From the NCBI GenBank assembly GCA_044342325.1, contig JBIIPZ010000043.1, positions 1 to 21,360 on the forward strand: a stretch of DNA of 21,360 bases. Reading direction: 5' to 3'. Made by a program: the position numbers and the translations under genes. The notes beneath the pieces are model-generated. The model ran no database searches, had not been told where the DNA came from, and worked only from the letters and a program-made list of their open reading frames with translations. This document shows positions 1 to 20,893 of this stretch, one piece after another (position 1 is the first letter of the stretch; each line of letters starts with the position of its first letter). This DNA is from Terrimicrobiaceae bacterium (lineage in GTDB: Bacteria > Verrucomicrobiota > Verrucomicrobiia > Chthoniobacterales > Terrimicrobiaceae).

Positions 1-103
1 CATCCAGTGCGATGAAGAGTTGCGAGACGACTTCCATGAGAGAGCCATAGGCTATTTCCAAGAAGTGCCCGAAATCGGCGTCGGAATTCCGCCCCGAGCC
101 TTC
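1..103 (-). pseudogene. Four-helix-bundle (23S rRNA IVP-like) gene, 3' part, running off the window edge
   Basis: Manual translation from 103 down gives EGSGRNSDADFGHFLEIAYGSLMEVVSQLFIALD, the typical second half of this family; it continues the fragment at 381-533. Confidence 0.85.
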
Positions 104-380
104 CCTCTGGCGCGTAGCTAGCAGTGCTATTCCACAAGCCATTTTTGTCTTTTACCTCTGGATTTTTTCAATTGCCGTTCGAAATATCTTGCCTGCTCTC
201 TGGTTGGAAATTGCTCAATTTTGAGTTCACTCCAAGGTCCATCGCAAGCGGTAGAATGGACGGCATTTTTGTTGTGCAGATGGAGTCGCCTCGAAAAATC
301 GCTCGTTTGTCCGATGTAAATTCGTCCAGACTGATTGCGGATGGCATAGACACAAAACATCAGGCACCTACGGGGCGGAG
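104..380 (-). mobile_element. 277-bp insertion carrying a GIY-YIG gene, splitting the four-helix-bundle gene between ...SSNIA and EGSG...
   Basis: Removing 104-380 rejoins ATC GCG|GAA GGC and restores the conserved NIAEG motif in frame. Confidence 0.8.
127..360 (-). CDS. Small GIY-YIG nuclease family protein
   Basis: VYAI...IYIGQTSDFSRRL..HN...GPW...A..FE..LK matches the stand-alone GIY-YIG pattern. Confidence 0.85.
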   Translation of the reverse strand: MFCVYAIRNQSGRIYIGQTSDFSRRLHLHNKNAVHSTACDGPWSELKIEQFPTREQARYFERQLKKSRGKRQKWLVE

Positions 381-533
381 CGCGATGTTTGAACTAACCG
401 ACGTCGATGCCCGCCGGATTTGTGGTAGGAGCGCGAACTGCTCTTCCTTGGGAAATTTGCGGCTGACAGCATAGACTTGCCGATTGAACTGACGGGCGAG
501 TTGCCATGCCTCGATGCGCTCGAACCGAAATTC
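381..533 (-). pseudogene. Four-helix-bundle gene, 5' part (no in-frame ATG found)
   Basis: Manual translation EFRFERIEAWQLARQFNRQVYAVSRKFPKEEQFALLPQIRRASTSVSSNIA; the upstream frame is open to a TAA at 609-611 without an ATG. Confidence 0.8.
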
Positions 534-546
534 CCGCCTGCTTGCT

Positions 547-574
547 CTCGTCCCTCGACGCTCGTCCCTCGTCG
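547..574. repeat. Degenerate 7-bp tandem repeat, about 4 units (CTCGTCC/CTCGACG)
   Basis: ctcgtcc ctcgacg ctcgtcc ctcgtcg at the 5' end of the four-helix-bundle gene. Confidence 0.8.
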
Positions 575-663
575 CCTGCTTTGCTACATCACTAATTATT
601 TGACATAATTAACAGAATTTCAAAATTTTATAGGAACACCCTTAAATTCACCCAGAAAACCAT

Positions 664-861
664 TCAACTTGCGAGGGCGTAGTCGATGGCTTTGGGGTTA
701 TCGACCCTTTTGCTGGCATTGAGGATTTCAAGTCCGACAATATTTCCTTCGATATCATAATCTAAAATAACGCCGGGCTTGGCTTCGTCGCTTTCTTCCA
801 CCGCTGCATCGCTCAAAATGATCGTGAGCGCATCAACTTCGGGATCATAGGTTACTTTCAT
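664..861 (-). CDS. DUF2283 family protein (putative antitoxin)
   Basis: MKVTYDPEVDALTI...GVILDYD..GNIVGLEILNASK is the characteristic pattern; overlaps the upstream partner by ATGA. Confidence 0.9.
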   Translation of the reverse strand: MKVTYDPEVDALTIILSDAAVEESDEAKPGVILDYDIEGNIVGLEILNASKRVDNPKAIDYALAS

Positions 862-1121
862 ATTTTCCAGTATTTTTTGATTTTTGATGTTCGATAAATT
901 GTCACGATATTTTTAGGATTCGCGGCGTCGTTGATAATCGCTCGCAAGAGACCTGGCTTGCCATTCTTCGTGCTCAGGCATTGGTAGCACACAAGTCCTC
1001 CATGCGCTTCCACTATTTGGTCCGGATGGTTCATGAGCGATTCGACCTGCTCAAGAGAAATTTGACGCCGAGCCATTTCCTCAACGGCATGCTTGGAGAT
1101 AGTGAAGTTCAAACCCAGCAA
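858..1121 (-). CDS. DUF4258 family protein (putative toxin partner of DUF2283)
   Basis: ISKHAVEEMARRQI...IVTIYRTSKIKKYW; this family is commonly paired with DUF2283. Start codon uncertain. Confidence 0.8.
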   Translation of the reverse strand: MLGLNFTISKHAVEEMARRQISLEQVESLMNHPDQIVEAHGGLVCYQCLSTKNGKPGLLRAIINDAANPKNIVTIYRTSKIKKYWKI

Positions 1122-1161
1122 TTTTTTACTCGTGACCCGCTACAGCCGACTCCGTCGGCTT

Positions 1162-1242
1162 CCCATACCAAAGCGACTTCTTCAGCGACCGACAGAATTT
1201 CTTCGAAACGCCTTCGACTCGGACTAGGACTTCGTCGTCCGA
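1162..1242 (-). pseudogene. Truncated Wzt N-terminus, second subfamily (no ATG)
   Basis: Manual translation SDDEVLVRVEGVSKKFCRSLKKSLWYG, a recognisable N-terminus of polysaccharide ABC ATP-binding proteins; ends at the hairpin 1144-1160. Confidence 0.75.
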
Positions 1243-1244
1243 GT

Positions 1245-1292
1245 GAGTAACGGGTGGCGGGTAACGGGTGGCGGGTGAAGAAGTAACGGGTG
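1245..1292. repeat. Degenerate 7-bp repeat tract (GTAACGG/GTGGCGG on +)
   Basis: gagtaacgggtggcgggtaacgggtggcgggtgaagaagtaacgggtg. Confidence 0.8.
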
Positions 1293-1293
1293 C

Positions 1294-1515
1294 CTAGTTT
1301 GTTGCCAGGGCTTTCGATCGGACTTGGATAATGGAGGCGAGCGCCCGCAATGAATCATTCACCGATTTTGAGTCCGGAAATGCTTCCGCGATATTGGGCT
1401 CCAACAAAATCAAATTCGTGCCTTGCTTGTAGAGCTTGGTGTATTTGCCTTTGACACCGGAGCTGAAATCATACTCGGCGAGCATCGTTTCCTTTTTAGC
1501 TTTTGGCTTTTTCAT
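1294..1515 (-). CDS. BrnA-like antitoxin
   Basis: MLAEYDFSSGVKGKY...LEPNIAEAFPDSKSVNDSLRAL; overlaps the BrnT gene. Confidence 0.8.
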   Translation of the reverse strand: MKKPKAKKETMLAEYDFSSGVKGKYTKLYKQGTNLILLEPNIAEAFPDSKSVNDSLRALASIIQVRSKALATN

Positions 1516-1780
1516 ATTGCTTTCTTTCTTTACGGCTTGCTGGCCGCGCGCTGGTGATTCTCAAATGGTTGCCTCTTTCCGTATGGATAACAATAAGCAA
1601 ACGCGCATTTTGTGACATTCCCATGGTAATGAATCTAGGTTCTTTTTGCGAATGCTTGAAGTCCGGGATGGTGATCGATTGCTCATCTCCAAAGATTGTG
1701 CCTGCTTCGGTGAATGCAACTCCATGTTTGATGGCATTTGCGGTCGCTTTATTATCATCCCACTCGAAAATTAGGCCCAT
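1496..1780 (-). CDS. brnT: BrnT family toxin (DUF497)
   Basis: FEWDDNKATANAIKHGVAF.EA..IF.D...HS..EPRF...RITSARPASRKERKQYE; ATG at 1780. Confidence 0.92.
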   Translation of the reverse strand: MGLIFEWDDNKATANAIKHGVAFTEAGTIFGDEQSITIPDFKHSQKEPRFITMGMSQNARLLIVIHTERGNHLRITSARPASRKERKQYEKAKS

Positions 1781-1788
1781 GGAGTTTT

Positions 1789-1830
1789 TTGCCAAATCTG
1801 CAAGTCTTCAAAGTTTTCTGCAAATCCCAT
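1789..1830 (-). pseudogene. 14-codon 5' stub of a four-helix-bundle gene, near-identical to the start of 3901-4260
   Basis: Encodes MGFAENFEDLQIWQ, then runs out of frame into brnT. Confidence 0.9.
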
Positions 1831-1860
1831 ACTAGTTACCGGTTACGCGTTACCCGCAAC
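1831..1860. repeat. Degenerate 7-bp repeat tract (GTAACNN on -) before the four-helix-bundle stub
   Basis: actagttaccggttacgcgttacccgcaac, paralleling 4261-4290. Confidence 0.75.
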
Positions 1861-1944
1861 ATCGCTCCAAGCGAGAAGTTCATTTTCTCTCATTTTTGAC
1901 AGAACTCACTTCTGCGGAATGCGATCCCATTCGAGCTTTGATCT

Positions 1945-2196
1945 TCAATCGGCAAGGCTGATATCGACCACCATCACTTTGCGCACTGGAGAATCCACCC
2001 AGTAGGTGATGGCGTATTTGCCGACAATTTTGATCTGAAGTTCCCGCAGCGTAGCATCTTTTTCCACAAAGTCACCGAGTTGGTCTGGTTGACGCTTGAG
2101 GCTTTCTGGGAATTCGAATATTAACCGTCTTTGCAAACCTGCCCTCGGCACAACTCCCTGCAGAAGGTCCGAGTGCACAAAAACCTCATAGTTCAT
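1945..2196 (-). CDS. RelE/ParE-like toxin (putative)
   Basis: 83 aa, MNYEVFV...VGKYAITYWVD..VRKVMVVDI resembles the RelE C-terminal pattern; TGATG overlap with the upstream gene. Confidence 0.6.
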   Translation of the reverse strand: MNYEVFVHSDLLQGVVPRAGLQRRLIFEFPESLKRQPDQLGDFVEKDATLRELQIKIVGKYAITYWVDSPVRKVMVVDISLAD

Positions 2197-2399
2197 CAGG
2201 CGCCTTGGCCCTTGGTTCGAATTGCGAAGTCTTCCAAGCTGACCCAATTTCTCTCGTCGCGATCCTGCACTCGGCGTTCTAGAGACGAGGACTCCTGAGA
2301 ATTATTCTTGCGCCACAAGCTGAACAGCAAAGCGGATAACTCTTTCTGCTCTTTGAAGGACAGTGCAACTACTTCTTTTTTTAATTCCTCATAGCTCAT
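2196..2399 (-). CDS. Putative addiction-module antitoxin
   Basis: 67 aa, MSYEELKKEVVALSFKEQKELSALL...WVSLEDF; coupled to the RelE-like gene. Confidence 0.6.
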   Translation of the reverse strand: MSYEELKKEVVALSFKEQKELSALLFSLWRKNNSQESSSLERRVQDRDERNWVSLEDFAIRTKGQGA

Positions 2400-2502
2400 A
2401 ATCTTTAATATCTCTGATTGGTTTTTTATTTCAAATCGAATTTTGCCAAAGCATTTTTTTGGGAATTGCGCGTCGCCGACGGCCAAGACTTTTATCCGAG
2501 GA

Positions 2503-2672
2503 ATTCACATCATGAGCCAGCGACCCCGCCCCCACTTCCCCGAGACGGTAGAGCTTGTGACCCACGCAGTGGGGAACCTGCGCGGGAGACTACCGAATGT
2601 AGCTTTTAGGGTGAGACGCCGAGGGCAAGGCGCGAATCAAATGTTTTCAACGCGAATTACAGTGTCGGACAT
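2503..2672 (-). pseudogene. Truncated wzt 5' end interrupted by a palindromic element
   Basis: MSDTVIRVENI [insert ~2560-2640] KLYRLGEVGAGSLAHDVN; homology then stops. Confidence 0.9.
2560..2640 (+). mobile_element. Palindromic ~81-bp insertion element, degenerate copy
   Basis: Closely matches 7597-7679 (ACCCA...GCGCGGGAGACTACCGAA...GTGAGACGCCGAGGGCAAGGCGCGAATCAA), with damaged hairpins. Confidence 0.8.
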
Positions 2673-2721
2673 AGGGCGGAAGAAGTAGCGTGTGGCGAGG
2701 GGCGAGGCTGGCGGTCGCGCC

Positions 2722-2916
2722 TCAGGCTGCGGCCAATACTTTCGAATCGATCAAATGGGCCAGGGCACTCACCAATTGGTTCTTTTGCTTAACAATAGAT
2801 TGTCCGTGATGGACTTTCTTCTCCAAGCAGATGCCCAGAGTTGCTTCACTCACGCGGATCAGTCGATTTCCCTCGGCCAAGCGGGTCATTTCGATTTTTA
2901 GGTTTTCGATTTTCAT
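2722..2916 (-). CDS. Small hypothetical protein, partner of 2921-3277
   Basis: 64-aa ORF with ATG 4 bp after the upstream stop; no family recognised. Confidence 0.6.
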   Translation of the reverse strand: MKIENLKIEMTRLAEGNRLIRVSEATLGICLEKKVHHGQSIVKQKNQLVSALAHLIDSKVLAAA

Positions 2917-2920
2917 AAGG

Positions 2921-3277
2921 TTAAAATCCCATTTTTTCAATCCAACTCAACATAATTTCTGGCGTTGGGTATCCATACTGCAGATAAGCCTCTTGAGCCA
3001 ATTTTTCAAATCCCGATTCATTCAACTCCATGACGGATTCCGGTGGTTCATCCAACGCGACAGCAAGAGACTCCAAAACTTCATGATAAATCGAGATGCC
3101 TACCTCCCTCTCGTTCAAATCGCTGGAAATCTGAATCGTGATTCGCTTTCCTTCAATAATGGCTTTCGCGAGCGCAGGTCTGCCGATCGGATCGAGCATT
3201 TTTCCCTCAACCCCGACAATCTCCGAAATGAAGTGCCCGGATGGAAAATTGAGATTCGCAAAAGCCTCAAAGTTCAT
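2921..3277 (-). CDS. Hypothetical protein with a HExxE (zincin/ImmA-IrrE-like) motif
   Basis: ISIYHEVLE preceded by ITIQISSDLNERE; ATGA overlap with the upstream ORF. Confidence 0.65.
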   Translation of the reverse strand: MNFEAFANLNFPSGHFISEIVGVEGKMLDPIGRPALAKAIIEGKRITIQISSDLNEREVGISIYHEVLESLAVALDEPPESVMELNESGFEKLAQEAYLQYGYPTPEIMLSWIEKMGF

Positions 3278-3543
3278 TTCGTGTCCTCCACCCGAATCAC
3301 CACATCACGATCACTCATCCCCCCCCAACTTGAAGTCACAGATTGTGATTTCAAGTTTGAGACCTCCTCGGCCGTGAGTTGAAACATGAAGCTGCTTGGA
3401 AATCTTGCAGGGTTTCGTTTAACCGCTTGATTCAAAGCGCGTGTTTCAACGCCGTAAATCTCAGCAAGGTCCGAAGCGAGCATAACCTTCTCACCCCTTA
3501 TGGAGTGAATTCGGCTTTGGAGCAGTTGTAATTCTTGCGACAT
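3274..3543 (-). CDS. Truncated ORF6N-domain protein fused in frame to a wzt start
   Basis: IRGEKVMLASDLAEIYGVETRALNQAVKRNPARFP..FMFQLTAEE...SSWGG is ORF6N, cut before the usual PYAFTE segment and followed by MSDRDVVIRVE. Confidence 0.85.
   Translation of the reverse strand: MSQELQLLQSRIHSIRGEKVMLASDLAEIYGVETRALNQAVKRNPARFPSSFMFQLTAEEVSNLKSQSVTSSWGGMSDRDVVIRVEDTK
3285..3318 (-). pseudogene. 11-codon wzt 5' stub (MSDRDVVIRVE)
   Basis: 31/34 nt identical to the start at 6894; all three differences are synonymous third positions. Confidence 0.9.
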
Positions 3544-3550
3544 TTTAGTC

Positions 3551-3578
3551 AAAAAGCAAGTTGCATCATTTGCTTTTT
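3551..3578. promoter_or_regulatory. Inverted repeat, possible operator upstream of the ORF6N gene
   Basis: AAAAAGCAA-N10-TTGCTTTTT ending 7 bp before the ATG at 3543. Confidence 0.4.
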
Positions 3579-3588
3579 ATCCGAAGTG

Positions 3589-3678
3589 ATTTACATCATG
3601 CGCGGGCGACCCAGTCCCCACCTAACCGAGACGGTAGAGCTTGCATAAATTTTCAACGCGAATAACGGTGTCGGACAT
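3589..3678 (-). pseudogene. Truncated wzt 5' end with a nonsense codon
   Basis: MSDTVIRVENLCKLYRLG*VGTGSPAHDVN. Confidence 0.9.
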
Positions 3679-3701
3679 GGGAAGAGGCGAAGAAGTAACG
3701 G

Positions 3702-3774
3702 GTGGCGAGTGGCGAGTGGCGAGTGGCGAGTGGCGAGTGGCGAGTGGCGAGTGGCGAGTGGCGAGTGGCGAGTG
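3702..3774. repeat. Perfect tandem repeat (GTGGCGA)x10 plus GTG
   Basis: Ten exact units counted from 3702 to 3771; degenerate units continue to about 3822. Confidence 0.97.
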
Positions 3775-3900
3775 CGGAGGCGCCTGCGGCGCTTGTAGCG
3801 GGTAACTGGTGGCGGGTGGCGAGATTTCCGCCTTCGGCGGATTGCTTTTGACCATTAACCCGCAACTCGCTACTCGTTACCGCCAGCTTTGCTGGCGCGG

Positions 3901-4260
3901 TTATTGTTGCGAGCGCAATTTTGAGGCGAGTGCACCGATCGATTTGGAGAGGTCTTTGTATTCGGAGCGTAGTCGCTCGGCAGCAGATTGGCAAAGGTAG
4001 GAGCGATCTTCAGCAAGATAGAGCATGGAGCGAACTTCGCCGGATGAGCCTTTTGAAGGGTCCAGAAAGTGTGCAAAGTCTTTCTTCGTCCGTCGCTCAA
4101 AGCCTTCCGCTATGTTATTCATGACCGAGACAGACGCTCGCTGAATTTGGCTACGGAATTCGAAATCGCGGATTTTCTCAAAGGCGTCGTAAATCTCATT
4201 GGTCAAAACGCGTGAACGTTGCCAAATTTGCAAGTCTTCAAAATTTTCCGCAAATCCCAT
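3901..4260 (-). CDS. Four-helix-bundle protein (23S rRNA IVP-like, TIGR02436 type)
   Basis: FEDLQIWQ...DFEFRSQIQRASVSVMNNIAEGFERRTKKDFAHFL..SKGSSGEVRSMLYLAED. Confidence 0.95.
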   Translation of the reverse strand: MGFAENFEDLQIWQRSRVLTNEIYDAFEKIRDFEFRSQIQRASVSVMNNIAEGFERRTKKDFAHFLDPSKGSSGEVRSMLYLAEDRSYLCQSAAERLRSEYKDLSKSIGALASKLRSQQ

Positions 4261-4307
4261 ACTCGTTACCAGTTACTCGTAACTCGCTACAGCCGACTCC
4301 GTCGGCT
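4261..4307. repeat. Degenerate 7-bp tract plus the AGCCGAC-TCC-GTCGGCT hairpin; block shared with 1127-1160
   Basis: TTACTCGT(A/G)AC(T/C)CGCTACAGCCGACTCCGTCGGCTT occurs at both sites. Confidence 0.85.
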
Positions 4308-4383
4308 TTAGTGTTCATTTTCTCTCATTTTCGCGAAATTGCTTCGCGATCAACTTTTTTAAGAATTTCAGAATGTCTGCTTT

Positions 4384-5061
4384 TTAAAATCCAAATCTTT
4401 CGAAAATTTCACTCCCGGGCTTACCTACAACCACATCGATCGGAAACAACTTGCCGGTGAAGTCGCGCAAGATGTTTTTGAGATTTGCATCCAAGACCAT
4501 CAAATCGAGTTCCTTGTTATAGAATGCCGCGACATCGGCGACGGAGCTTTTTTGAAACCCGAGCGACTCGAAGTATTCAACCACATCGGCTTCCGTAACG
4601 TCGGCCAAATCGCCGCTTTCGGCAATCCATGGTTGTGAAGTGACGATGCGGACATTACCTTCGGTGGCGAGGATGCCTTGGAGGAGTATATTGTCGCCAA
4701 AGATTTGGTTGTGATGAATGAGGCGCTGAAGATATTCGCTTGGTAGCGCGCTTTGGCCTTCACCGATCAAGGAGTGCCCGAACCGGCCGTCTCGCGTGAC
4801 CTTGATGGCACATTGGCTGAATTGATCAAAAAAGACCTCGTGCTCGGCACCGGATGAAACCGGCTTGAATTTCTGCAAGAAATCTTCGCTCAGGCAGTAG
4901 CCAGATCGTGTGGCCCACTCCGCGAAGATGACGACTTCGTGTTGGAAACTCCATCGCCGCGAGCGTCCACCCGGCGGCACTGCTCCAAGGCTTTCTCGTA
5001 GGAAGTCCAGGGCTGATTGCAGCGGGCTTTCCGGGTTTCCTCGGCTTTTTTCAGAATCCAT
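4384..5061 (-). CDS. Putative kinase of the polyvalent-protein type (Kinase-PolyVal-like)
   Basis: Motifs SGAEHEV, AIKVT, EYLQRL..HNQIFGD, VTSQPWI, DANLKN, FPID; ATG at 5061 preferred. Confidence 0.7.
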   Translation of the reverse strand: MDSEKSRGNPESPLQSALDFLRESLGAVPPGGRSRRWSFQHEVVIFAEWATRSGYCLSEDFLQKFKPVSSGAEHEVFFDQFSQCAIKVTRDGRFGHSLIGEGQSALPSEYLQRLIHHNQIFGDNILLQGILATEGNVRIVTSQPWIAESGDLADVTEADVVEYFESLGFQKSSVADVAAFYNKELDLMVLDANLKNILRDFTGKLFPIDVVVGKPGSEIFERFGF

Positions 5062-5090
5062 TCGATTGAAAGTTTCATAGGACAACAATA

Positions 5091-5121
5091 TTGACTATGC
5101 GATGGGGACTATGGTTGTCAA
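5091..5121 (-). promoter_or_regulatory. Possible promoter/operator for the kinase gene
   Basis: TTGACA on the minus strand; TTGAC...GTCAA inverted ends enclosing two GACTATG direct repeats. Confidence 0.35.
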
Positions 5122-5181
5122 CCTTTGGCTCTGAGCATGGCTGGCGACATCCTTCATTTTGCGCAGGCATTTTTTTTGGAA

Positions 5182-5208
5182 TTCAACGCGAATTACGGTT
5201 TCAGACAT
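5182..5208 (-). pseudogene. 9-codon wzt 5' stub (MSETVIRVE)
   Basis: ATGTCTGAAACCGTAATTCGCGTTGAA matches the starts at 2672, 3678 and 7711; preceded by a heptamer tract. Confidence 0.85.
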
Positions 5209-5215
5209 GGGAAGT

Positions 5216-5247
5216 AGAGTCGAGGGACGAGGGGCGAGAGTCGAGGG
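5216..5247. repeat. Degenerate 7-bp tract (GAGTCGA/GGGACGA on +)
   Basis: gagtcga gggacga ggggcga gagtcga ggg. Confidence 0.8.
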
Positions 5248-5278
5248 CTGGCGGAAGGTGTGGAGTTGCCAAACCGCG

Positions 5279-5617
5279 TCAGGATGCTGTGTATTTTTTT
5301 AGAAGGCCGCCGAGTTCTACTGCATCGCGGCTTGCGATTCCCCAAATCAAATTCGTATCAACTCCAAAATAGTCATGCACAATACGATGCCTCAATCCAA
5401 CAATCCGGGGCCATGGAATGTCTGGATAGAGTTTACGCGCTTCATCATCCATTTGCCGTGCCGCTTCCCCCACTATTTCCAAGTTGCGGGTCACAGCATC
5501 GATGGTTTTTTGATCATTCAAAAAGGTATCCGCATCCATTCCCTGGATGTAGGCGGAAATCCGTTCTAATGCTGTGTAGATGTCTTGAACGAGAATAGCT
5601 GTATCCCTTTTAGGCAT
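5279..5617 (-). CDS. HEPN/DUF86 ribonuclease toxin (HepT-like)
   Basis: DAVTRNLEIVGEAA...IPW..IVGLRHRIVHDYFGVD..LIW with an RX4H motif. Confidence 0.93.
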   Translation of the reverse strand: MPKRDTAILVQDIYTALERISAYIQGMDADTFLNDQKTIDAVTRNLEIVGEAARQMDDEARKLYPDIPWPRIVGLRHRIVHDYFGVDTNLIWGIASRDAVELGGLLKKYTAS

Positions 5618-5897
5618 AAGTTACATCCGGTTCGATCGTCTTCCATCTGGCGGGGTCGATGGCTCTCCGTGAAACAACATCAACAGGCACGCCAAAGGCT
5701 TGTTCGATCTCCGTGGCCAAATCAACAAATTGCAAACCTATTGAAGGATCCATATCTACGAGGACATCGACATCACTGTCGGGTCGCGCCTCGTTTCTCG
5801 CCATGGAACCGAAAATTCCGAGCTTGTGGACTTTATATCTTTTCCCCAAATCGGGCTTCAAACGCCCTAGAATCGATAGCGCAATGGATCGGTTCAT
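5610..5897 (-). CDS. Minimal nucleotidyltransferase antitoxin (MntA-like)
   Basis: LGIFGSMARNEARPDSDVDVLVD...VDVVS; paired with DUF86. Confidence 0.93.
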   Translation of the reverse strand: MNRSIALSILGRLKPDLGKRYKVHKLGIFGSMARNEARPDSDVDVLVDMDPSIGLQFVDLATEIEQAFGVPVDVVSRRAIDPARWKTIEPDVTYA

Positions 5898-6055
5898 TTC
5901 TTAATATCGGCGATTGAATACTCGGGTTCATCATCGCCATAACTCATGGCAAAATTTTTGAGGGCAACATCTGTCCATTCCCTGTTTTCACGAGCTTCTT
6001 CTTGTCGCCCTAGAGCAAATTGGACAAACCAGTCAGTGAGTTTTATCGCGCTCAT
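5894..6055 (-). CDS. 53-aa antitoxin-like small protein, not in the ORF track
   Basis: Manual translation MSAIKLTDWFVQFALGRQEEARENREWTDVALKNFAMSYGDDEPEYSIADIKK; ATGA overlap with the MNT start. Confidence 0.6.
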   Translation of the reverse strand: MSAIKLTDWFVQFALGRQEEARENREWTDVALKNFAMSYGDDEPEYSIADIKK

Positions 6056-6130
6056 AATTTGAAATTAGTGTTTGATGAACTGAGATTCAATGCTTTTTCG
6101 TGAGCCCTAGCACGGAGCCATTGATGGGAA

Positions 6131-6165
6131 GAGGCGTCGAGCGTCCAGGGCCGAGAGTCGAGAGC
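6131..6165. repeat. Degenerate 7-bp tract of the GAGTCGA family
   Basis: gcgtcga gcgtcca gggccga gagtcga gag. Confidence 0.7.
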
Positions 6166-6187
6166 ATCCGGTTAAAATGGGATTGAA

Positions 6188-6220
6188 CCCAGCCCCATTA
6201 TGCCCAATCAGTCCCAGGCA
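6188..6220 (-). pseudogene. Isolated Wzt Walker-A fragment (CLGLIGHNGAG)
   Basis: Matches the GECLGLIGHNGAGKST segment of Wzt proteins, cut before KST. Confidence 0.7.
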
Positions 6221-6306
6221 TTGATGCCGTCTCCTCCCGGAGTCCGGCACCTTGGTTGCACCAAGGCATTTCTTCGAAATCTCTTTTTCGGACCGTCCCA
6301 GGTTCC

Positions 6307-6894
6307 TCAATTCCCCGCGGCGTAGTTCGAAGCTGACGTCCTTGACGGCGAAGAACTCGCCGTCCCGAAGCGAAGCTTCGGGAGTAACGAGTCCAGAAGA
6401 AGATTTCTTACCACACCCAGGCGGCTGGGCGGCTGGGCGGCCGCTCGGGAGACTGCCGAAGGCAGCCCCGCAGGGGCGAGACGAGAGGGATCGAGCGAGT
6501 CAAATTTCACGGATTCAGAATCTGAACCAGTTTGGTCCCCGGAAGCGCGGGAGTCATTCGCGGAGCGAATGGAAGCGAGTTTTTCGGAGTCCATCTGCAA
6601 GCCTGCTTGCGAGTGGCCTTCCAAAAACTCCGCCGAATCAGCACGCTGATTCCCGCCCGCGCCAACCTCGGTGCTCTCTGTGTCCTCTGTGGTTAAATTT
6701 TTCTTGGAGCTCGCCTGCTTCGCAGGCTTCGTCCGATCATTCACCTCCCCGATCTTGAGATACGGATCCTCCTTCCCACGAAGCCGGTGCCACCAGCGGT
6801 TCACATCATGCGCCAGCGAACCCGTCCCCACTTCACCGAGGCGGTAGAGCTTGGAGATGCCCTCCACCCGAATTACAACATCCCGATCACTCAT
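6307..6894 (-). pseudogene. Longest wzt 5' stub (56 codons, 6727-6894), continuing as a repeat-derived open frame
   Basis: MSDRDVVIRVEGISKLYRLGEVGTGSLAHDVNRWWHRLRGKEDPYLKIGEVNDRTK is a typical Wzt N-terminus; no WAL..V.F, Walker B or ABC signature follows. Confidence 0.9.
6415..6503 (+). mobile_element. Palindromic insertion element, divergent copy
   Basis: ACCCAGGC...CGGGAGA CTGCC-GAA-GGCAG CCCC-GCA-GGGG CGAGACG...GCGAGTCAA. Confidence 0.75.
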
Positions 6895-7514
6895 TTTCCG
6901 CGCTTGATGACATGTTTGAACTTGAGAACCGCGAAATTCAACTCGATTGAAGTCTCAGTGTCGCTCGTGTAGAGTTCGTCCTCGAACAGTTCGGAAACCA
7001 GTTCGCCGCTGCGTTGCAGCAGTGGCTTTTGAGCGGCTTCTTCCTTTGTGGCCGATAATGTCGTGATTGTCCGCGAAAGCTCGCGGATTTTTGCAAAAGT
7101 TTGCCGACCTCGCGCCCGCTCGTGTCGCCCTGCGGGCTGCCGAAAGGGCAGGCTTCCCCGCGCCATCCCAAGGCGCCGGGGTTCGATGATCGTGAATGTC
7201 GCTTCCGTGGCTTGCGGGCTTTTCAGGATTGTTGCCAGCATGTAGAGCCCCTTTTCAGGAAAGGCTGTAGGGGGTTTCACTTTGCCACCCCGTTTTGAAG
7301 TCGAAAATTTCGACTTCAAACCAACCCACTCATCTTTTGATATTTGTATGAGGTATCCTTCGGGAAATTTCTCTGGATTGTTTTTGACAGCTTCGTTGAT
7401 TCGTTTGGTTTCCACTCCATAGATCAACGCCACATCTTGATCCAAGAGCACTTTCTGACCTCGTATTTCCAAGATGCTTTCTTGGATTATTTTTACATCA
7501 AGCGGCTTATTCAT
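6891..7514 (-). CDS. ORF6N-domain protein with a 27-aa in-frame insertion
   Basis: IRGQKVLLDQDVALIYGVETKRINEAVKNNPEKFPEGY...EKGLYMLATILKS...IIE[insert]TFAKIRELSR...IELNFAVLKFKH. Confidence 0.9.
   Translation of the reverse strand: MNKPLDVKIIQESILEIRGQKVLLDQDVALIYGVETKRINEAVKNNPEKFPEGYLIQISKDEWVGLKSKFSTSKRGGKVKPPTAFPEKGLYMLATILKSPQATEATFTIIEPRRLGMARGSLPFRQPAGRHERARGRQTFAKIRELSRTITTLSATKEEAAQKPLLQRSGELVSELFEDELYTSDTETSIELNFAVLKFKHVIKRGK
7101..7181 (-). mobile_element. Palindromic 81-bp element inserted in frame in the ORF6N gene
   Basis: On -: CCCCGGC..TTGGGA..GCGCGGGGAAGC CTGCC-CTTTC-GGCAG CCC-GCA-GGG CGACACG...GGCAA; GC-rich within an AT-rich gene. Confidence 0.8.
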
Positions 7515-7579
7515 ATTAGGATTATTTTGATTTTTCCTGGCCTTTACCCACCCACACTGGCGATGAGGTGGGGCATGGC

Positions 7580-7711
7580 AAGGCGGTAGAACTTGGACCC
7601 AGGCAAGGTTGGGAACCTGCGCGGGAGACTACCGAAGGTAGCCCGTAGGGTGAGACGCCGAGGGCAAGGCGCGAATCAAATGTTTTCAACGCGAATAACG
7701 GTGTCGGACAT
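7580..7711 (-). pseudogene. Truncated wzt 5' end interrupted by a palindromic element
   Basis: MSDTVIRVENI [insert] SKFYRL; removing the insert restores ATT TCC AAG. Confidence 0.9.
7597..7679 (+). mobile_element. Palindromic ~83-bp insertion element
   Basis: ACCCAGGC..TTGGGA..GCGCGGGAGA CTACC-GAA-GGTAG CCC-GTA-GGG TGAGACG...GCGAATCAA. Confidence 0.85.
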
Positions 7712-7765
7712 AGAGCGGAAGAAGTAGCGTGGGCGAGTGGCGGATTACTGCAAAGAGAAACTTTT

Positions 7766-8284
7766 TTATTTAATCCCAAGACCCTTAGCCCAATTCAACC
7801 ATGTTTGTGTCAAGCCATGGTGCTTTAGAATTTCCGTGAATTTGGGCAACTGAAAATCTTGCAGTTCATAAAGATAGACCACACGAGCTCGATCTTTGGG
7901 GCGCCCTACTGTGAGAGCGATGGCCGCCAAGTATTCAGGTGTCATGACCCGAATGGTATGTCCATCCCACTGCAAGACATCTGCGTTATTGACAGCCTCA
8001 ATCTCAAGCTCGCTGGATGCCGCCAGAAACTGCACTGGCATGCCGTGGATAACAATGCCTTCTTCGTCAAATTCGGAGAAGCCCAACTCGGAAAGCTTTT
8101 TGAAAATAGGTTCCAAGCTGACTAAAAACGAGCCTTCCGGAACATTCAAAAAGCAAAAAACATCGATGTCCCGGGTAGCCAGCGGTTCTCCATGAAAACC
8201 TGCAGCTGTTGCTCCGCCTATTGCGTATTTCCCAACAACACCTGCATTGAGAAGCTGCTCTAAAACATCACAAACCTTTTGCAT
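7766..8284 (-). CDS. Nucleotidyltransferase-fold protein
   Basis: YAIGGATAAGFHGEPLATRDIDVF (GG...DxD) and C-terminal GRPKD. Confidence 0.8.
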   Translation of the reverse strand: MQKVCDVLEQLLNAGVVGKYAIGGATAAGFHGEPLATRDIDVFCFLNVPEGSFLVSLEPIFKKLSELGFSEFDEEGIVIHGMPVQFLAASSELEIEAVNNADVLQWDGHTIRVMTPEYLAAIALTVGRPKDRARVVYLYELQDFQLPKFTEILKHHGLTQTWLNWAKGLGIK

Positions 8285-8468
8285 GTCGCTTGATTTTCTC
8301 TAATTCCAATGTCTCTAAAATTGTTTGCCCCAAAAGCGCTACTTTTTCACCGATGGGCAGATTTCTTTGTTTTTGCCTCCACATGGTTTTTTCACGCAAC
8401 CACAAAAGCCCTTCGGAGTTGCATAGCGAATGAGCCGCAATGTTTCGATTTTTGATTTTTTTCTCCAT
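8268..8468 (-). CDS. Small hypothetical protein, partner of the nucleotidyltransferase
   Basis: 66 aa, basic, contains LPIGEKV; overlaps the downstream gene by 17 bp. Confidence 0.6.
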   Translation of the reverse strand: MEKKIKNRNIAAHSLCNSEGLLWLREKTMWRQKQRNLPIGEKVALLGQTILETLELEKIKRHAKGL

Positions 8469-8499
8469 TGAAAACAAGGCTTTGAGGCAAAGGCCCAAC

Positions 8500-9363
8500 C
8501 TACACAGTGTCCATGAAGGTGCGCTCGACTTTTTTGAACATGACGATGCCGAGGAAAAGCAGCACGGCAGTAATGGCAGCGGCGATTCCGAGGCCTTGCC
8601 ATGGGATTGCGCCGCCGAGGAAGATGGCGCGGAAGCTCTCGATGACGGGGGCCATGGGGTTGAAATTCATGAGGAAAGCGTATTTTTCAGGAACTATGCT
8701 GGCCGGGTAGATGATGGGGGTGGCATACATGGCGAGTTGGACTCCGAAACCGACGAGGAACGTGAAATCGCGGTATTTTGTAGTGAGCGAGGAGATGATG
8801 ATACCAGCACCGAGGCCGAGCAAGGCCATGATTCCAAGAAGGATGGGAGCAAGGAGGAAAACCATAGGCCAATCGGTATGGAGATCGGCTCCTTTGATGG
8901 AGTAGAAAGCGAGAAACGCAAAAAAGAGGAGAAATTGGATGCCAAACTGGATGAGGTTTGAAATGACAATCGAAAGCGGCGTGACGAGTCTGGGAAAGTA
9001 GACTTTGCCGAAGATGCCGGCATTCGCCACAAAGGTGGAGGAGGTTTTTGTGAGGCAGGTGGAAAAGTAGTTCCACGGAGTAATGCCGGCGAGGTAGAAA
9101 AGCATGGGAGGAAGGCCATTGGTGGGCAACTTAGCCAGACCACTGAAGATCACTGTGAAAATGAGGGTGGTCAGGATGGGTTGGACAAAAAACCAGAGTG
9201 GGCCAAGGACGGTTTGCTTGTAAACGGAGACAAAGTCCCGCCGCACGAACATCCAAAGCAGATCGCGGTAGTGCCAGACATCGCGGAGCTGCAAATCCCA
9301 CCAGCGTGTGGTGGGGTTGAGCACCATGTCCCAATTTTCGTTTTCGGTGTTGGAGGATGTCAT
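8500..9363 (-). CDS. wzm: Polysaccharide ABC exporter permease (ABC-2 type)
   Basis: LRDVWHYRDLLWMFVRRDFVSVYKQTVLGPLWFFVQP...KVYFPRL...KYRD...YATPIIYP...FKKVERTFMDTV; ATG at 9363 chosen because it lies downstream of the regulator stop. Confidence 0.95.
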   Translation of the reverse strand: MTSSNTENENWDMVLNPTTRWWDLQLRDVWHYRDLLWMFVRRDFVSVYKQTVLGPLWFFVQPILTTLIFTVIFSGLAKLPTNGLPPMLFYLAGITPWNYFSTCLTKTSSTFVANAGIFGKVYFPRLVTPLSIVISNLIQFGIQFLLFFAFLAFYSIKGADLHTDWPMVFLLAPILLGIMALLGLGAGIIISSLTTKYRDFTFLVGFGVQLAMYATPIIYPASIVPEKYAFLMNFNPMAPVIESFRAIFLGGAIPWQGLGIAAAITAVLLFLGIVMFKKVERTFMDTV

Positions 9364-9394
9364 AAGGTGTTGGATTGCGTGAAGAAAAGGCGAC

Positions 9395-9967
9395 TCAGAA
9401 TTTGCCGGCGAGGACTTTGATGAGGGGGAGGGCTTTTCCAAAAAACTTATACCAGCCGGCGATCTGGCCGAGGCGGGATTTTTCGAAGTGGGCGGTGGGA
9501 GAGGCCGGGTCGATACTGGATTCGAGGACGCTCAGGCGGCTGGGGCCGTTTTCGAGGTGGGGATCGATGCGGTCGCGGAGGTAGCCGCTGGCGAGCTTGC
9601 GCAGGCTGGTCTCGGCGGTGAAGTGTTCTTTTCGGATGCCAGGCAGGTAAACTTGGTTCACGGCACCGAGTGAACGGAGCCAGCGCAGGCCTTCACTTGC
9701 GGATCCGCGACTAAGTTGCAGGCGGGTCTGCACATCGTCGAGCGAGAGAGGTTCGGGCGTGCTGAAGAGGAGGCCGTAGATTTCACCGATGGAACGGGGC
9801 AGCGAGAGGGCTCCGAAGACATGGATAAAAAGTGCGACGGACTGGAGCTGAAAGGCGCTGAGTGGAGGTGGCGGCGATATCTGGAGATTCCCTCTCCGTG
9901 CAGATTGGGAGCTTTTTACAGACAAGCTGCCGCCCTTGGTAAAAGGGGTGTCTTTTACCGGCGGCAT
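9395..9967 (-). CDS. GbsR/MarR family transcriptional regulator (start uncertain)
   Basis: LPRSIGEIYGLLF.TPEPLSLDDV..RLQLSRGSASEGLRWLRSLGAV....RKEHF.AE winged helix. Confidence 0.85.
   Translation of the reverse strand: MPPVKDTPFTKGGSLSVKSSQSARRGNLQISPPPPLSAFQLQSVALFIHVFGALSLPRSIGEIYGLLFSTPEPLSLDDVQTRLQLSRGSASEGLRWLRSLGAVNQVYLPGIRKEHFTAETSLRKLASGYLRDRIDPHLENGPSRLSVLESSIDPASPTAHFEKSRLGQIAGWYKFFGKALPLIKVLAGKF
9938..9959. promoter_or_regulatory. Inverted repeat, candidate operator
   Basis: GGTAAAAG-N6-CTTTTACC at the head of the regulator-wzm operon. Confidence 0.45.
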
Positions 9968-10076
9968 GGTAAGAATATTGTTTTCCACGAGCCTCTGTGA
10001 GAGGGGATGACGAGGGGAAACCTCGCTCAACTGCAATTTTGTTCAAGTTTTTTTGAACAAAATTTTAGGGGATTTT

Positions 10077-10724
10077 TCAGGGGGTGGTGTTTTTTTCTTC
10101 TTCAACGACTTCGGGGGCGACGGCGCGGAGGGCTTTTTGTGCGGCGCGGGTGATCCAGACGGTGACGGCGATGGTGAAGGCGAGCTCGAGGGCGTAGAGT
10201 GCCCAGGCCCACGGGCCTTGGTTGATGTCGCCTTTGGCAGCGGCGCCGATGACCGCCCCGCTATAGGAATAGGCGGCACTAATTGGCAGGAAGCCCACCC
10301 AAGAGGCGACGATGTAACGCCAGAAATTGATTCGCGAGAGGCCGAAGGCGCAGCTCACAAGGCTGTGCGGCAGGATGGGTGAAATGCGGGTGAGGATGAT
10401 CATTCGCCAAGCATCCTTGGTGGCGACATGGTTGAGGGCGTGGAATTTTTTGCTCTTAGCGAAGCGGCGCTCCATCCAGCCTCGCAGGAGGTAGCGGGTG
10501 GAGAGGAAATTTGCGAGCGCACCGCCGATGGAGGCCACGGAGACAAGCAGCGTGCCGCCCCAGAATCCATACACCGCACCAGCACCGAAGCTCAGAACAG
10601 AGCCGGGCAGGAAAAGCACACAAGACAGCGTGTAGAGAATGACAAACCAAATCCAGCCGACGGGACCGGTTTGCTCGATCCAGACCATCGCTTCGCGGGT
10701 CCAGGCTGTCCATTGATCAAGCAT
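10077..10724 (-). CDS. TVP38/TMEM64 (VTT/DedA-related) membrane protein
   Basis: FLPGSVLSFGAGAVYGFWGG...ILTRISPILP...FGLSRI.FWRY..ASWVGFLP. Confidence 0.9.
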   Translation of the reverse strand: MLDQWTAWTREAMVWIEQTGPVGWIWFVILYTLSCVLFLPGSVLSFGAGAVYGFWGGTLLVSVASIGGALANFLSTRYLLRGWMERRFAKSKKFHALNHVATKDAWRMIILTRISPILPHSLVSCAFGLSRINFWRYIVASWVGFLPISAAYSYSGAVIGAAAKGDINQGPWAWALYALELAFTIAVTVWITRAAQKALRAVAPEVVEEEKNTTP

Positions 10725-10785
10725 GGGAAAGGGGCGCAAACACGCATCCTGCGGGCGAAGGCAGCGATGAGGATGGGGCGGCGAC

Positions 10786-20538: not shown

Positions 20539-20790
20539 TTACTGCTTAGCGTAATTGAGCATGAAATAAACCCCAGCCAGCACCAACCCGGTAATAGTTA
20601 TTCCAAGAGTAATGAGTTTTTGAGTCAGGCGATTTTCCAAATCGGAAATTTCTGCTCGAATCGTGTGGTCGAGGTATTCCTTGGTAACAAGGTCGCCCTC
20701 ACGCTCCTCAACCACAGTTACAATTGCTTCTGCTTGAGTTTCGCTGAGTCCCGCTTCGCGCAAGGATTTGAGACTGGCAATGGCGTTCAT
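20539..20790 (-). CDS. DUF1640/CCDC90-like small coiled-coil membrane protein
   Basis: LREAGLSETQAEAIV...DLVTKEYL...EISDLENRL plus a C-terminal TM helix. Confidence 0.75.
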   Translation of the reverse strand: MNAIASLKSLREAGLSETQAEAIVTVVEEREGDLVTKEYLDHTIRAEISDLENRLTQKLITLGITITGLVLAGVYFMLNYAKQ

Positions 20791-20893
20791 TCTGGAAAAA
20801 AGGTGCGCCGGAAATTTTCGCAAGTCAAGAAACTCTGCTTGTGAAAAGGGCGAATATTCCGAAACCGCCATAAGCCAACACGCAAATAAAAAA

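Follow-up and report, generated by a model that had tools for sequence, protein, structure and literature searches.

Dead wzt copies and cargo genes downstream of wzm

An array of truncated (dead) wzt genes and small cargo genes was analyzed in a Terrimicrobiaceae bacterium (GenBank assembly GCA_044342325.1, here G000; 2.9 Mb, 86% complete). The stretch studied, called the window, is the entire 21,360-nucleotide contig JBIIPZ010000043.1 (C5), and the sequencing runs matching G000 sequence were lake and freshwater metagenomes. Housekeeping genes (gatB, aroC, and others) lie upstream of the array, followed by a MarR-like gene and by wzm, which encodes the membrane subunit of a glycan exporter with the ATP-binding cassette (ABC) protein Wzt. 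Downstream of wzm, every cargo gene is on the same strand as wzm (Table 1). Seven wzt-type starts were located on the minus strand at 7711, 6894, 5208, 3678, 3318, 2672, and ~1242, with open frames of 11, 195, 37, 18, 14, 11, and 38 codons respectively. Mapping of intact wzt genes from relatives gave a portion matching wzt of ~9-56 codons per stub. The ~1242 stub, which lacks a start codon, is a copy of a second wzt paralog (KKFCRSLKKSLWYG type), and a Walker-A scrap at 6188-6220 corresponds to CLGLIGHNGAG of the same paralog. The two paralogs are intermixed in the array, and chimeras of both are present. The 5208 and 2672 copies skip ahead to where the ABC domain ends. A preliminary description of the window, made from the letters alone, had listed the seven stubs and the scrap, all of which were recovered in place, and the array turned out to be larger. 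Overlooked were internal wzt scraps (6371-6310, 6190-6167, 6126-6093, 5181-5136, and 2489-2440) and the 3' end of a wzm paralog (~7596-7544). The list also omitted an ~80-bp hairpin element present in three copies, the 5' stub of a four-helix-bundle gene (1830-1785), and another four-helix-bundle gene that is interrupted by a GIY-YIG gene.

Ten cargo genes matched Pfam families (GIY-YIG, DUF2283, DUF4258, BrnT, two ORF6N, 23S_rRNA_IVP, Kinase-PolyVal, HepT-like, and NTP_transf_2). The earlier cargo list and its co-orientation held for these genes, whereas its "RelE-like pair" and putative BrnA gave no match in family searches including Pfam. The 172-aa nucleotidyltransferase (NTase) and the HExxE protein were named from atlas leads only, and PADLOC returned only candidate PDC families. 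The NTase and its 65-aa neighbor are the resident first cargo after wzm1, in identical position in G008, G010, G043, and G048. The four-helix-bundle gene at 4260-3901 is flanked by inverted heptamer arms, the arrangement of intervening sequence (IVS)-type cassettes, and this applies to that cargo only. A promoter scan gave 8 matches versus 7.3 expected, so that cargo promoters were not shown, though three minus-strand matches precede cargo. Two cargo genes carry insertions of their own. The ORF6N gene contains an in-frame repeat insertion of ~27 codons near 7178-7103 that the G010 copy lacks (split alignments). The GIY-YIG gene interrupts its four-helix-bundle host together with short flanks; the three G048 copies of this host are intact, one of them 100% identical over the last 104 bp.

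Table 1. Features of the wzm-wzt interval in the window, listed from wzm toward the left edge (aa, amino acids; ORF, open reading frame)
Feature	Position	Strand	Remark
MarR/GbsR-like regulator, upstream of wzm	9395..9931	-	weak NF047500 match, below cut-off
wzm paralog 1 (ABC-2 membrane subunit), which borders the array upstream	8500..9363	-	PF01061, E 1e-17
65-aa ORF and 172-aa nucleotidyltransferase-like gene	7766..8465	-	atlas lead DUF2204, score 0.98
wzt1 start stub encoding MSDTVIRVENI before a stop codon	7680..7711	-	
~80-bp hairpin element, reversed inside wzt start, provides the stop codon	7597..7681	+	nhmmer E 3e-14; same junction in 5 other genomes
wzt1 KLYRL joined to 3' end of wzm paralog 2	7544..7596	-	join at 14-nt word common to intact alleles; recurs in G010, G048
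ORF6N gene	6891..7514	-	PF10543; stop overlaps next wzt start
Longest dead wzt copy: 56 codons of the paralog-1 N-terminus, a linker built of repeats, paralog-2 ABC pieces	6093..6894	-	interrupted by insertions/deletions; breaks after LTKK
53-aa ORF, MNT and HEPN (HepT-like) genes	5279..6055	-	PF01909, PF01934
Collapsed wzt1 copy	5136..5208	-	9 start codons joined to FQKKCL..KMKDVA from ABC domain end
Kinase-PolyVal gene	4384..5088	-	PF18762, E 3e-13
Four-helix-bundle gene (23S IVP/TIGR02436) with upstream heptamer arm	3901..4308	-	
wzt1 repeat linker piece, run of heptamers, and wzt1 stub (start at 3678)	3585..3896	-	stub breaks after HDVN
3'-truncated ORF6N fused to 12-codon wzt1 start (3318-3285)	3285..3552	-	junctions common to G044, G048
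HExxE protein (IrrE-like lead) and 64-aa partner	2722..3277	-	91-97% identical copies in G010, G044, G048
wzt1 start, hairpin element in reverse (2642-2558), codons up to HDVN, LAVGD..KKC.GK piece	2440..2672	-	break common to 4 other genomes
67-aa and 83-aa gene pair	1945..2399	-	toxin-antitoxin-like by size and layout; no Pfam match
Four-helix-bundle 5' stub (16 codons), BrnT, putative BrnA	1294..1830	-	PF04365
wzt paralog-2 stub without start	1162..1242	-	break after KKSLWYG; base-exact same in 4/4 genomes
DUF4258 and DUF2283 pair	664..1121	-	Pfam
Second four-helix-bundle gene, split by GIY-YIG gene (360-127), runs off contig	1..610	-	its end on contig C4

Distribution of the array and its continuation beyond the window

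Loci were compared in 24 genomes (G000 included) out of 41 in the genus, all of them different species. At least one dead wzt piece was present in 18 of the 24, and none was detected with the queries used in G001, G013, G014, G015, G022, and G050. The number of dead copies reached 15 over ~26 kb in G048 and 12 up to the contig end in G043. In the seven complete loci (G005, G007, G008, G010, G023, G045, and G048), the intact wzt was the last wzt copy. A truncated copy also precedes an intact one in other wzt paralogs of the genus and in three genomes of another family (G078, G270, and G284). At positions 6869-10754 of the G078 locus (L157), wzm1 and a truncated wzt are followed by a whole second wzm-wzt pair of the other paralog, which may be taken as a minimal example of whole-exporter capture inside wzt. 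As a control, 80 distant wzt loci, mostly of Bacteroidota, were searched. Of the 77 that contained wzm, the wzm-wzt gap was shorter than 100 bp in 58, 100-300 bp in 6, and longer in 13. Since only one of the 80 loci showed a stub-like match (31 nt), the wzt stubs in the array were not due to chance.

The preliminary description placed an intact wzt beyond the left edge. The end of C5 and the start of another G000 contig, C4, match two parts of one G048 four-helix-bundle gene that lie 30 bp apart, at 100% and 98.5%, which supported, at the level of sequence, that the array continues onto C4. C4 contains a wzt stub, marR, a second wzm, a Phd/PIN-type pair, and a further stub, and it ends in a dead copy. 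The array therefore extends as expected and relatives keep an intact wzt last, but no intact wzt was found in the 86%-complete assembly when it was searched for Wzt_C and queried with two intact paralogs in tblastn/blastn. Captured marR-wzm blocks are not confined to C4, where the second marR copy lies; they also occur within the arrays of G048, G043, and G044.

An assembly chimera, in which co-occurring strains were stitched together at wzt repeats, would offer a trivial explanation. The genome is a metagenome assembly, contigs often stop inside arrays, contiguity rests on the assembly, and for 15 of the 30 junctions in the window no counterpart was seen in the other genomes. The other 15, however, recur elsewhere, as do multi-stub blocks of ~1 kb at 93-97% identity. 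Runs from two different studies, one of which may be the source sample, contained 0.93 and 0.91 of the sampled words; RNA runs, with shares of 0.09-0.23, were counted as no evidence. Moreover, the stubs bear stops, insertions, and deletions, which assemblers do not invent. A chimeric origin is scarcely credible on this evidence.

Breaks in wzt are inherited with the downstream cargo

The association between the point at which a wzt copy breaks and the cargo that follows was measured in 18 mapped arrays, with 43 junctions scored and with gaps >180 nt and insertion sequence cargo excluded. Pairs of junctions from different genomes that carried the same cargo shared the same wzt break in 27 of 33 cases, versus 41 of 754 for pairs with different cargo, a difference that none of 2000 permutations reached. 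The genomes are kin and share ancestry, and the linkage is one of inheritance, not of independent events. The 67/83-aa pair followed the KKC.GK break in 5/5 genomes, DUF4258 followed the KKSLWYG break base-exactly in 4/4, and marR followed a GCAR break in 3 of the 4 scored. The HDVN-to-ORF6N junction recurs in four other genomes, and the LTKK break before the MNT-HEPN cargo is common to G011 and G048. Direct wzt-to-marR joins were present in three genomes, and wzt-to-wzm-3'-end joins in the window and in G012.

The upstream side behaved differently. Across a dead wzt, the NTase gene was followed by four different cargoes in four genomes, and the 64-aa gene by five different cargoes. The upstream neighbor varies while the break stays with the cargo, which places the switch point within wzt and assigns the break to the cargo. 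Judged from these comparisons, the unit is a wzt arm with a fixed break, the cargo, and a wzt start, and the order of units is shuffled between genomes. Relatives do differ by units of cargo plus a fresh wzt start, as the preliminary description had proposed.

The same description held that each insertion creates a new break, that insertion is anchored at the gene start, and that the oldest units lie near wzm. This amounts to polar accretion, in which a dedicated insertion mechanism hits the resident wzt 5' end anew each time. The terminal position of the intact wzt in the seven complete loci and the co-oriented, cassette-like cargo speak for it, and tyrosine recombinases, an integron integrase among them, are encoded in G000. 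The breaks, however, pass base-exactly between genomes together with the downstream cargo, and in both paralogs they are scattered between codon ~12 and the ABC domain end without a common motif, so neither the new break nor the anchoring could be upheld. Polarity was assessed as retained wzt length versus position in the array. No gradient was detected in four arrays (Spearman rho -0.14, n=15; +0.13, n=12; -0.20, n=6; +0.26, n=6; all p>0.6), and the first unit of the window (7711-6503) corresponds at 97.4% over 1210 bp to the terminal, intact-wzt unit of G048, contrary to strict polarity.

The absence of recombination machinery in the array was borne out. A Pfam scan of 30 window ORFs (22 + 8) found no integrase, transposase, or IntI. 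G000 does possess a true integron (C30:1-2977) with an N-terminally extended IntI, three cassettes, and long attC sites, and further attC sites lie on C11, C18, C46, and C71. An attC model built from these sites of the genome itself returned seven matches at E<0.001 on other contigs and none on C4, C5, or in 31 oriented loci, which again argues against polar accretion. A strict attC pattern tried beforehand gave 0 matches in the array but missed true sites; it was uninformative and was replaced by the model. Polar accretion is largely refuted as stated, and we consider it quite unlikely.

Dead wzt pieces resemble diverse functional alleles

Compared to intact references, the dead pieces differed at 715/3003 (23.8%) third and 71/3022 (2.3%) second codon positions, and the terminal copies at 218/865 (25.2%) and 21/866 (2.4%) respectively, counting alignable pieces of at least 36 nt only. 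The divergence of dead pieces is thus like that of functional alleles, which makes them recent or refreshed fragments of diverse functional alleles, drawn from many donors, rather than old duplicates. Identity between genomes was higher for cargo than for wzm and marR (for G010, 90-95% versus 78% and 71%). Tandem duplication of wzm-cargo-wzt within a genome, with subsequent decay and independent cassette insertions, could produce repeated units such as those in G048 and G043, among them three copies of the four-helix-bundle gene and two add74 units. Copies within a genome, however, differ by 5-15% with a synonymous bias, two paralog families are mixed, and cargo crosses species boundaries, which makes duplication very unlikely as the main source.

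The intact Wzt copies scanned both contained PF00005 and one contained PF14524. In one pair, the intact wzt genes of G010 and G048, the ABC domains were 95-100% alike and the C-domains 10-20%, and in one genome, G048, glycosyl- and methyltransferase genes lie downstream of wzt. This pattern would fit a role of the wzt ABC domain as the crossover zone of surface-glycan swaps. No Wzt C-domain or glycosyltransferase remnants were found in 11 array loci, where the few matches were repeat DNA, and this was a weak test given that C-domains diverge. RecA, ComEC, and DprA genes are present in G000 and would permit transformation.

Hairpin elements and other repeats

The ~80-bp hairpin element begins near ACC, ends near TCAA, and recurs at certain sites within dead wzt copies. 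The reading frame was kept in 12 of 22 measured insertions. Mini-hairpins within the element had GNA loops in 33 of 43 CCC-loop-GGG matches, and an Rfam search of positions 1-9000 found nothing at E<=1. Our guess is that the element may be mobilized by a Y1 transposase in the manner of repetitive extragenic palindromic (REP) sequences or miniature inverted-repeat transposable elements. Carried further, the element and the heptamer and nonamer arms, together with an enzyme acting in trans (a Y1/HUH transposase or the four-helix-bundle protein), might themselves make the breaks and mobilize the units, homology then having a secondary part. Three Y1 transposases are encoded in the genome, several insertion sites coincide with breaks (LTGRE and LTKKE), and four-helix-bundle genes are flanked by repeat arms. 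Proximity to wzt was pronounced as well, with 61/63 element matches within 120 nt of a wzt piece, but the model was seeded with array copies and the count is biased. Moreover, the element is missing from most break junctions, 8 of its 13 copies in the genome lie outside the array (5 within), and folding of the whole element is weak (median z -1.2). Hairpin- or repeat-directed mobility is unlikely.

Other repeats were observed. Another insertion type, 90 bp long, occupies window positions 6310-6222 at the KRGE/RRGE site of both wzt paralogs and is also found in G007 and G048. The intact wzt genes of G010 (L032:485-1930) and G048 (L051:13954-15513) contain a linker of 50-100 residues between the N-terminus and the ABC domain, which consists of in-frame repeat DNA (inverted heptamer arrays, nonamers, and the hairpin element) and varies between alleles. 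REP-like families cluster on G000 contigs C9, C19, C70, C74, and C78, some around toxin-antitoxin (TA)-like genes and very long ORFs. Local repeats on 12 inspected G000 contigs were REP-like or intragenic and contained no gene stubs. On C52 (28958-29408), a GxxExxY (PDDEXK_3) gene with nonamer repeats was noted between genes that are presumably purQ and purL, from the motifs they carry. One reverse transcriptase lies on another G000 contig, with no link to the array seen. Elsewhere in the window, a low-GC, DUF1640/CCDC90-like ORF of 110 aa (20539-20871) sits between tRNA-Arg and tRNA-Val.

Discussion

We propose that the array consists of modules (a wzt piece with a fixed break, small cargo, and a wzt start) that are stacked and exchanged by homologous recombination inside wzt, and we put the probability of this reading at roughly two in three. 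The cargo of a module would mostly be a TA-type pair or a four-helix-bundle gene. Initially, single cassettes would enter the wzm/wzt junction, as happens sporadically elsewhere. The junctions suggest that DNA of another strain then recombines homologously downstream, in the conserved wzt ABC domain or beyond, with its upstream end joined illegitimately inside the resident wzt. The product would be a stub followed by donor cargo, at times a donor wzm end or a whole marR-wzm block, and a new wzt start. In the step best supported by the data, an existing module would move by out-of-register homologous recombination between any wzt pieces, through a double crossover or a circle, so that the break stays with its cargo, units are reordered, and the intact wzt always remains beside the glycan cluster. 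Short-homology deletions would collapse dead copies and ~80-bp hairpin elements accumulate, as is visible in the array. Swapping of the downstream surface-glycan cluster is the probable driver of this traffic, and addiction to TA pairs probably slows the loss of cargo.

Several observations weigh against exchange inside wzt. No recombination event or intermediate was observed, and there is no parent-daughter pair among these different species. Some wzt arms measure only 20-35 bp, which is short for RecA. Same-cargo pairs lacked a common break in 6/33 cases, and the link between upstream cargo and start type was weak (23/34 versus 321/895, reached in 3/2000 permutations), with start classes partly mis-called. 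In a tree of stub N-termini (23 sequences, 126 nt), 15 of 20 inner branches were open. ComEC and DprA also match in 10-11 of 14 control genomes, so competence was not shown, and the dense loading of dead copies with hairpin elements is not accounted for. Finally, in the alignment of relatives, where strains were expected to differ by whole units, unit differences were found, but only 78 of 216 shared-block ends were no more than 15 nt away from a piece of wzt coding sequence, versus an expectation of 38.9 (the ends are not independent). The other 138 ended farther away, in a count that left out the linker, wzm ends, and four-helix-bundle stubs. Most block ends are away from wzt pieces, and therefore other repeats and deletions also shape the array.

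A bolder version, to which we give a small chance, is that dead wzt pieces are kept and refreshed as recombination handles of a lineage-wide TA/defense library. Each glycan swap would reshuffle the cargo, and the GNA-hairpin element or four-helix-bundle proteins would promote exchange and silence possibly poisonous truncated Wzt, an integrase-free counterpart of the integron.

Integron arrays consist of co-oriented small cassettes, are rich in TA genes, and are shuffled between genomes. Co-oriented single-gene or TA cassettes were also found here; unlike integrons, the wzt array has neither attC nor an adjacent IntI, and its boundaries are wzt pieces. IVS-type four-helix-bundle cassettes (TIGR02436) occur here as repeat-armed genes and, as one gene each, in 5 of the 13 long wzm-wzt gaps of distant bacteria, where they are single insertions without wzt stubs. 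Such cassettes are likely raw material, not the stacking mechanism.

Rhs arrays are described as strings of gene fragments of variable length beside one intact gene, with gain proposed through homologous recombination in the conserved core and circles, without an integrase (Jackson et al. 2009, PMC2935791). The wzt array likewise repeats fragments of an anchor gene beside one intact copy (seen in relatives), and its break-cargo linkage and allele-like divergence would fit gain by recombination of that kind. It differs from that account in that its fragments, 5'/ABC pieces derived from a housekeeping exporter, are located upstream; its cargo genes are of TA type and unrelated, instead of alternative tips of the same protein; and two paralog families occur together, while rhs arrays are confined to one clade (PMC2935791). 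In Vibrio cholerae, serial addition to type VI secretion system (T6SS) effector-immunity arrays was proposed by homology-facilitated illegitimate recombination, with remnants and no integrase (Kirchberger et al. 2017, PMC5361080). There the anchor is upstream and old genes are pushed downstream; here the remnants accumulate upstream, units occur in shuffled order, and different species reuse the same fixed break-cargo modules. The anchor is also Wzt, with the array upstream, rather than a polymorphic toxin with an alternative tip and immunity gene downstream. By analogy, the wzt array may be seen as a mirror image of Rhs/T6SS displacement arrays, without being a member, with a glycan-exporter anchor, upstream remnants, and unrelated cargo.

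Additive flexible genomic islands are described as arising by site-specific insertions with repeats of a tRNA end (PMC5217437, PMC10872708). Similar to replacement and additive islands in these accounts, the wzt array may border a glycan cluster swapped by homologous recombination, and it grows by cassettes marked by repeats of the target gene. Here, however, pieces of a protein gene that vary in length form the repeats, no integrase is linked, the breaks are motif-less in place of fixed att/tRNA-end repeats, and the nearest tRNAs are at least 5.9 kb away. The locus might accordingly be likened to an array of the additive kind placed at the arm of a replacement island. Searches of the open-access literature turned up no account of arrays of wzt stubs.

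These arrays indicate that cassette arrays of 8 to 27 kb can be built and shuffled between species with pieces of a transporter gene as the apparent handles and with no integrase or att site. TA-type cargo would thereby be tied to the zone in which surface-glycan swaps cross over, in many aquatic bacteria the main locus of phage evasion. With the fixed break-cargo junctions as heritable markers, homology-facilitated illegitimate recombination, which is rarely observed, and the later reuse of its products become testable in natural populations with long reads.

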